A DNA stretch of 63,889 nucleotides, filler included, from Vicugna vicugna (Eukaryota), in assembly GCA_013265495.1 (NCBI GenBank). It is 77 parts of 76 records of this genome, joined end to end, with 100 filler letters (N's around TTAATTAATTAA, not from the genome) between each part and the next. Parts side by side here need not be neighbours in the genome. Positions count along the whole stretch, not along the records: positions 7,782 to 8,482 come from PNXW01025108.1; 76 more parts are not named here. One strand, given 5' to 3'. Below, in pieces: positions 7,782-8,482 of the stretch. Position 1 is the stretch's first letter, and each line of letters opens with the position of its first letter. A program made the position numbers and the translations under genes. A model generated the notes under the pieces. The model did not search any database and was not told where the DNA came from. It saw only the letters and a program-made list of their open reading frames with translations.

Positions 7782-8482
7782 AGCTATGAGTGAGTTTTCT
7801 CGTGTGTAGGTGGGTTTAATATTGTTGATATGGTAGGTATGATTACCTCGTTGTGTTATGATGAGCATATATAATGAGTATAGGGCTGTGATTATCATGT
7901 TGGCTCCTATTAAGATAATTGTGATGTTGGATCAGGAGAATGAGGCTATAATTACGAATAATTCTCCGAGTAGGTTAATTGTGGGGGGTAGGGCCAGATT
8001 AGTGAGGCTTGCTAGTAATCATCATATTGCTATTAAAGGTAGTAGTGTTTGCAGGCCTCGCGCCAGAATTATTGTTCGACTGTGGGTGCGTTCATAATTT
8101 GTGTTTGCTAGACAGAAAAGTATAGAGGATATGTGAGTCCGTGGGCGACTATGAGGGTGGTAGCCCCTATGTAGCTTCAGGGAGTTTGGATTAGGATAGC
8201 TACAATAACCAGGGCCATGTGACTAACTGAGGAGTAGGCAATAAGTGACTTTAGGTCAGTTTGGCGTAAGCAGATGGAGCTGGTCATAATTATGCCTCAG
8301 AGGGATAATATTAGAAATGGATACGCTATATACTCTGTTAGGGGGTTTAATATAGCTGTAAGGCGTAGTATGCCGTAGCCTCCTAGTTTGAGCAGGACTG
8401 CAATAGCATTAGGAATGGGTATGCTATATACTCTGTGAGGGGATTTAGTATAGCTGTGAGGCGTAGTATGCCGTAGCCTCCT
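7782..8482 (-). pseudogene. ND4: Mitochondrial ND4 segment, probable NUMT, with a frameshift and an internal duplication
   Basis: Minus strand in the vertebrate mitochondrial code reads [90 protein letters not shown][+2 bp at about 8131][58 protein letters not shown]...TRENSLMA. 8403-8482 duplicates 8305-8384. Confidence 0.96.

Follow-up and report, generated by a model that had tools for sequence, protein, structure and literature searches.

In the pig, two nuclear insertions of mitochondrial DNA (NUMTs), SSC8_REGION_5 and SSC2_REGION_14, show 98% identity in three assemblies where 91% would apply, which the available text of the study ascribes to correction by, or integration of, authentic mtDNA (PMC11403998). 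For humans, the available part of another study describes concatenated NUMTs with mtDNA-mtDNA breakpoints that were validated by long reads (PMC9630118). Among the South American camelids, the accessible sections of one survey place the split between the Lama and Vicugna mtDNA clades at ~1.0-1.2 Myr ago, record both clades in domestic animals and find Lama-clade mtDNA in most of the modern alpacas sampled (PMC8032396), and alpacas descend from the vicuna (PMC7331169, in the part available); both sources, to the same extent, speak of extensive hybridisation among these camelids. Given Lama mtDNA and vicuna descent in alpacas, a vicuna-lineage NUMT beside Lama mtDNA is expected in one animal, if that animal is an alpaca. 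The NUMTs of one South American camelid assembly have reportedly already been surveyed, in an alpaca NUMT catalogue said to have been compiled by Anello et al. in 2023. No published account of the scaffold described below was found in the literature searched.

The scaffold is one of 77 pieces in a window of 63,889 nucleotides (the whole stretch of DNA that was analysed, filler included). The pieces have a median length of 766 bp, 33 of them have internal gaps, and the outermost two are possibly truncated at the window's ends. The linker between pieces is always one identical 100-base unit (44 N, then TTAATTAATTAA, then 44 N) with stop codons in all frames, and because linkers separate pieces that are not adjacent in the genome, arguments from context across them are invalid. 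A 267-bp repeat unit matches 9 of the 77 scaffolds and a 63-bp unit matches 5, and these matches, together with the tiny gapped pieces, indicate that the window is a bin of unplaced leftovers. ND4 is matched by just one of the 77, which is ND4 throughout and bounded by linkers on both sides, so that nothing ties it to nuclear DNA; the missing nuclear flank speaks of the assembly and not of the genome. The segments of this scaffold are collected in Table 1.

Table 1. Segments of the ND4 scaffold, with positions counted along the window.
Feature	Position	Strand	Observation
ND4 scaffold	7782..8482	-	complete 701-bp stand-alone piece, solely mitochondrial ND4; linkers at 7682-7781 and 8483-8582
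X4-like stretch	7782..7912	-	131 bp, no difference listed against X4; contains H419 and Y421 (guanaco/llama type)
Second-haplotype block 1	7913..8013	-	7 silent differences from X4, each at 99.8-100% of X4 depth
X4-like stretch	8014..8314	-	301 bp without substitution against X4
2-base insertion (ACA TA TCC)	8130..8131	-	ND4 frame shifted after residue 322
Second-haplotype block 2, within copy A	8315..8360	-	7 silent differences from copy B / X4 type
X4-like stretch	8361..8401	-	41 bp, no difference listed against X4; ND4 residues 233-246
Junction of 98-bp tandem unit	8402..8407	-	8406G and 8407C (sense ATG CTA) differ from X4 type
Copy B proper	8408..8482	-	X4-type (guanaco/llama-clade) letters; no alternative letter listed for X4, bin depths 130,000-585,000

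The other scaffolds of the window hold several features of their own. The 267-268-bp tandem repeat, with copies 89-95% alike, lies at 21580-22255 and 49836-50435 and on 7 more scaffolds, and has the unit length of a 267-bp centromeric satellite of South American camelids; the figure '267' does not occur in the available part of PMC13751797. An AT-rich satellite, built on a 7-bp unit (AGAATAT-like) that is organised in a higher-order period of 63 bp, occupies 1624-2464, 2565-3369, 12212-13055, 17528-18646 and 33800-34588. At 58989-59597 (+) a 203-aa open frame matches the Gag p24 N-terminal domain (PF00607, E 1e-44), marking a fragment of an endogenous retrovirus-like element, and at 52605-52742 two tandem 70-bp copies, 92% alike, are arranged as in an LTR enhancer duplication and carry octamer-like and CCAAT motifs. 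Another tandem repeat family is probably represented at 13156-15333, where a unit of 57-147 bp occurs in three diverged copies, spaced 1314 and 266 apart with internal gaps in between. Rfam and ARAGORN gave no matches in the window.

Once the insertion at 8130-8131 is stepped over, the main piece of the ND4 scaffold, read from 8401 down to 7782, covers ND4 residues 233-438. Over these 206 aa it has no differences from guanaco, llama and two alpaca records, 2 from the vicuna type (residues 419 and 421), 6 from Camelops and 8-9 from Camelus. Judged by its predicted translation the scaffold is thus South American camelid ND4, of guanaco/llama type at the only two residues that are diagnostic. Since vicuna and guanaco ND4 differ in this region at residues 419 and 421 only, the protein cannot name the second haplotype described below, both blocks of which fall where the vicuna and guanaco proteins agree.

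The first-pass annotation had drawn attention to an 80-bp piece of ND4 present twice with 9 differences, 8 of them transitions, and repeat comparison bears this out: the direct repeats 8305-8384 (copy A) and 8403-8482 (copy B) are 80 nt long, ungapped, 89% identical and 98 bases apart, and by tblastn both correspond to ND4 residues 239-264 on the minus strand. Pfam PF00361 is found in both ND4 pieces of the scaffold. Under NCBI table 2 all 9 differences are indeed silent, as had been claimed, 7 of them in the third codon position and 2 in the first position of a Leu codon (CTT/CTC, TTA/CTA, AAC/AAT, CTA/CTC, GCG/GCA, TAT/TAC, TTT/TTC, ATA/ATG, TTA/CTA); if mutation were blind to the codon, 9/9 silent would arise by chance with a probability of ~1e-4. 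The ND4 frame is neither uninterrupted nor colinear: besides the 2-base insertion, which had been overlooked, it contains a back-jump of 98 bp at 8402/8403.

Of the 24 listed sequencing runs, 4 (X1, X3, X4, X12) were compared with the whole scaffold at 80% likeness, as contigs, which show presence and not absence. Run X4 has an mtDNA depth of several hundred thousand and is of guanaco/llama type at codons 419 and 421. About 550 bases of the scaffold, including most of copy B, match mtDNA of this type. All 14 differences of the main piece from X4 are confined to two blocks, each about as long as one short read, and the remainder, with copy B, falls into X4-identical stretches of 131, 301, 41 and 75 bp. 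In block 1, X4 is fixed for another letter at 7913, 7959, 7961, 7968, 7989, 7998 and 8013. In block 2, three sites were read directly in X4, one follows from clipping at 8320 and three from absent rows on copy B: the mismatch at 8321 is deduced from the fall in X4 depth from 103,713 (8318) to 1,974 (8321), and the differences at 8339, 8345 and 8350 from there being no rows for X4 on copy B. The two blocks make up 147 bp of 620, and uniform shuffles equal this clustering in 1 of 300,000 cases, or in 505 of 300,000 with just the 10 sites listed for X4.

The main piece of the scaffold is itself a mosaic of two haplotypes, which alternate at least 4 times, in register, across 701 bp. All differing sites are silent (16/16, of which 14 lie in the blocks and 2 beside the junction), which supports an origin of the differing letters in functional mtDNA. 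The first-pass annotation had read the two copies as two mitochondrial lineages joined at the junction. That two mitochondrial haplotypes are present holds, but a single junction between a lineage-A copy and a lineage-B copy does not, and copy A is not one lineage: the letters peculiar to it are confined to 46 bp with X4-identical sequence on either side, and the second block lies 300 bp away. One lineage on each side of the junction, as expected of a compound NUMT, was thus rejected as a description of the scaffold, given the at least 4 in-register alternations.

Copy B also departs from X4 beside the junction, at 8406G and 8407C. Elsewhere its letters were seen directly in X4 at the homologous copy-A sites 8315, 8324 and 8360, though the ends of copy B are checked less firmly because differences close to the ends of aligned pieces go unlisted. 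At 8309, the homologue of one junction-side site, X4 keeps the copy-A letter, with C in 0 of a depth of 307,023. The chance that junk would resemble homologous ND4 as well as 8406/8407 do is ~1 in 1000. If these two letters belong to the second haplotype, a junction-bearing piece of 93-98 bp would have been inserted in an X4-type backbone, and both copies would switch haplotype inside the same 5 bases, a pattern that would fit gap filling, consensus overwriting or a chimeric read; a k-mer switch does not explain it, because a shared switch point of 5 bases is too short.

The 2-base insertion is absent from the mtDNA of X4 (37 contigs), and an old NUMT of X1 and X3, discussed below, also has 324 letters where the window has 326. 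It sits in an X4-identical block and is therefore not a sign of decay of the second haplotype. None of the 4 runs compared contains either the frameshift or the joint at 8402/8403, a weak negative in view of contig data, which drop rare variants. Beyond 8401, contigs of X4 carry on with the normal upstream sequence of ND4 (19 loose-end records).

The junction region, 8340-8482, is represented by 11 sampled index words, of which a carrier of the window's form would give 11/11; the index leaves out 4 of the listed rows, which are raw reads. Some words occur in 20 runs from 7 studies, none of which reaches half, the best having 5/11; the shares are 0.46 (1 run), 0.36 (7), 0.27 (10) and 0.18 (2). 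From the k-mer classes, carriers of X4-type mtDNA should show ~5.5 words and those of the second haplotype ~3.1. The runs with a share of 0.27 could be carriers of second-haplotype mtDNA, but X12, the sole one of these 10 that was compared, displayed no mtDNA, so that this is not counted as evidence. Among 28 matches to the reading frame that spans junction and frameshift (P0141), none carries the junction or the frameshift peptide, a weak negative since gene callers seldom report such pieces, and camelid ND4 DNA patterns had 0 matches in viral, metagenome and genome contig collections.

The WGS runs X1, X3 and X12, from three differently labelled organisms, displayed only old ND4 NUMT contigs, at depths of 8-13 and ~82% identical, and X4 contains a similar one at depth 7. 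In X1, X3 and X12 there are two of these contigs, both at nuclear depth, which map to 8133-8359 and 7813-7849 of the window with 38-40 differences in 227 bp. Being nearly alike in three differently labelled organisms, the old NUMTs are older than the split of these camelids. As sources of either copy they were rejected as too distant (82-85% identical; for X1, 40 differences in 227 bp). Against the window, 24 of the 30 sites listed are silent and 6 are replacements, with 10 of the 40 differences unlisted. Since an old NUMT thus differs from mtDNA mostly at silent sites, silent differences do not by themselves exclude a NUMT, and the all-silent argument of the first-pass annotation stands only as far as the divergence of the copies' letters in functional mtDNA. 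The 16/16 silent sites compared with 24/30 in the old NUMT (P ~0.03; Fisher p 0.08) lean toward true mtDNA or a young NUMT as the second source.

Taken as an outgroup, the old NUMT has the X4 letter at 7961, 7968, 7998, 8315, 8321, 8324 and 8360, and so polarises 7 of the 14 sites, although in block 1 the method reveals only agreement with X4. At least 7/14 block letters are therefore derived in the second haplotype, which points to a sister mtDNA lineage and not to a frozen ancestor, an argument weakened by saturation at this distance. No NUMT with at least 90% identity was found in X1, X3 or X12, but a filter also hid their mtDNA, so the missing young NUMT proves nothing. The vicuna clade is the obvious candidate for the second haplotype. 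A vicuna-guanaco ND4 distance was found in none of the available parts of 10.1101/739805, PMC1939714, PMC12708666, PMC5144146 and PMC13751797, nor is an ND4 alignment among the sheets in part 1 of 9 of supplement file 1 of PMC8032396.

Repeated in-register switching favours an assembly patchwork, and that the scaffold is a patchwork of some kind, the variant with two animals included, we regard as probable. The specific form that we prefer, which we hold at about even probability, is a young NUMT, derived from a sister mtDNA lineage, part of which gave way to true mtDNA reads of far greater depth. Such a NUMT, probably vicuna-like, would be present in the nucleus, a location presumed for the second haplotype, and the animal's own much deeper mtDNA reads would replace part of it during assembly. 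The 98-bp duplication and the 2-bp insertion would then be leftovers of the NUMT, or else read chimeras. What survives would be what is least removable by majority-type consensus, gap filling and error correction, i.e., an indel, the junction-side bases and dense clusters of differences, and the resulting scaffold would be functionless. Among the options of the first-pass annotation was an assembly chimera between a NUMT and the mtDNA of the animal itself, and this has become the best reading, but its NUMT part is unproven and lacks a nuclear flank.

Several observations count against simple overwriting. It leaves unexplained why X4 letters appear in copy B but not in copy A, and why block 1 survived when its 7 differences in 101 bp are easily aligned. 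The 16/16 silent differences lean toward true mtDNA as the second source. The position of the frameshift in an X4-identical block also counts against it, as does the shared 5-base switch of both copies, if 8406/8407 belong to the second haplotype. The missing NUMT of at least 90% identity in the three WGS runs is also counted against it, though the filter voids the weight of that result.

Alternatively, the patchwork may combine the true mtDNA of two animals of the guanaco/llama and vicuna clades, through pooled libraries or contamination, in which case the junction and the insertion would stem from chimeric or slipped reads, rare in themselves but recurrent where mtDNA depth is very high. This would accommodate the wholly silent differences, a second haplotype that is derived at no fewer than half of its block sites, the missing nuclear flank, an insertion within mtDNA-identical sequence and the occurrence of both clades in domestic camelids (PMC8032396, in the part available). 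It requires reads from a second animal, however, which nothing here indicates, and the homologous look of 8406/8407 fits a duplication inside the second haplotype. We consider it unlikely, though next in probability to the overwritten NUMT.

The main idea of the first-pass annotation was a real compound NUMT, made either by the nuclear joining of fragments that differ in mitochondrial lineage or age, or by newer mtDNA patching an older NUMT. This is less probable again, and we hold it to be rather improbable. The human concatenated NUMTs provide a precedent, a tandem duplication and a frameshift would be in keeping with a copy that has no function, and the contig negatives are weak. The in-register switches are nevertheless not what a single end-joining event would leave, and the scaffold has neither a nuclear flank nor a run with half of the junction-region words or with the joint.

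That the mosaic is a real molecule, whether a young NUMT or heteroplasmic mtDNA, with vicuna- and guanaco-clade sequence recombined in register at several points, appears improbable. Recombinant or rearranged mtDNA in a heteroplasmic hybrid animal, produced by paternal leakage of mtDNA of the other clade and then recombination, is a very improbable form of it: in-register switches are the expected product of homologous recombination and hybridisation among these camelids is extensive, but such mtDNA would bear the ND4 frameshift and the 98-bp duplication, and X4 shows a single haplotype at every site of block 1. Mammalian mtDNA is, moreover, maternally inherited. Finally, an ordinary duplication within a NUMT whose copies then drifted apart in the nucleus has the tandem geometry and a nearby frameshift on its side but is refuted by the chance of 9/9 silent differences and by the match of copy B to present-day mtDNA, which leaves it a negligible probability.

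The overwritten-NUMT reading carries a caution, that a small scaffold of mitochondrial appearance in a short-read camelid assembly can be a patchwork, and a lesson for interpretation: all-silent differences between two pieces attest to the mitochondrial origin of the letters, not to their joining in the genome. If the second haplotype is a vicuna-lineage NUMT beside Lama mtDNA, it would provide a small nuclear marker of a displaced maternal lineage, useful and of a known kind. If single molecules carry the mosaic, it would testify to recombination of two divergent lineages of mammalian mtDNA and be of specialist interest; a real recombined molecule would preserve, like a fossil, the meeting of both mitochondrial lineages in a single hybrid camelid cell and their exchange of DNA.

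Compared with the known systems, as far as the available parts of the sources describe them, the scaffold resembles the pig NUMTs (PMC11403998) in being mitochondrial-like sequence of a nuclear assembly that may be too similar to true mtDNA. The pig NUMTs differ in having nuclear flanks and orthologues in other assemblies, whereas the camelid scaffold has no flank, its orthologue was not found and the overwriting is deduced from the block pattern. With the human concatenated NUMTs (PMC9630118) it shares a junction at which two sites of the mitochondrial genome meet, and those NUMTs can mimic a mixed haplotype. They are backed by split reads, inheritance and long reads, whereas the junction of the scaffold has no read support here, and its haplotype switches are in register and not confined to the breakpoint. 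With the Lama-clade mtDNA of domestic South American camelids the main haplotype shares the guanaco/llama residues H419 and Y421, and the sister clade (PMC8032396) is a candidate donor of the second haplotype.
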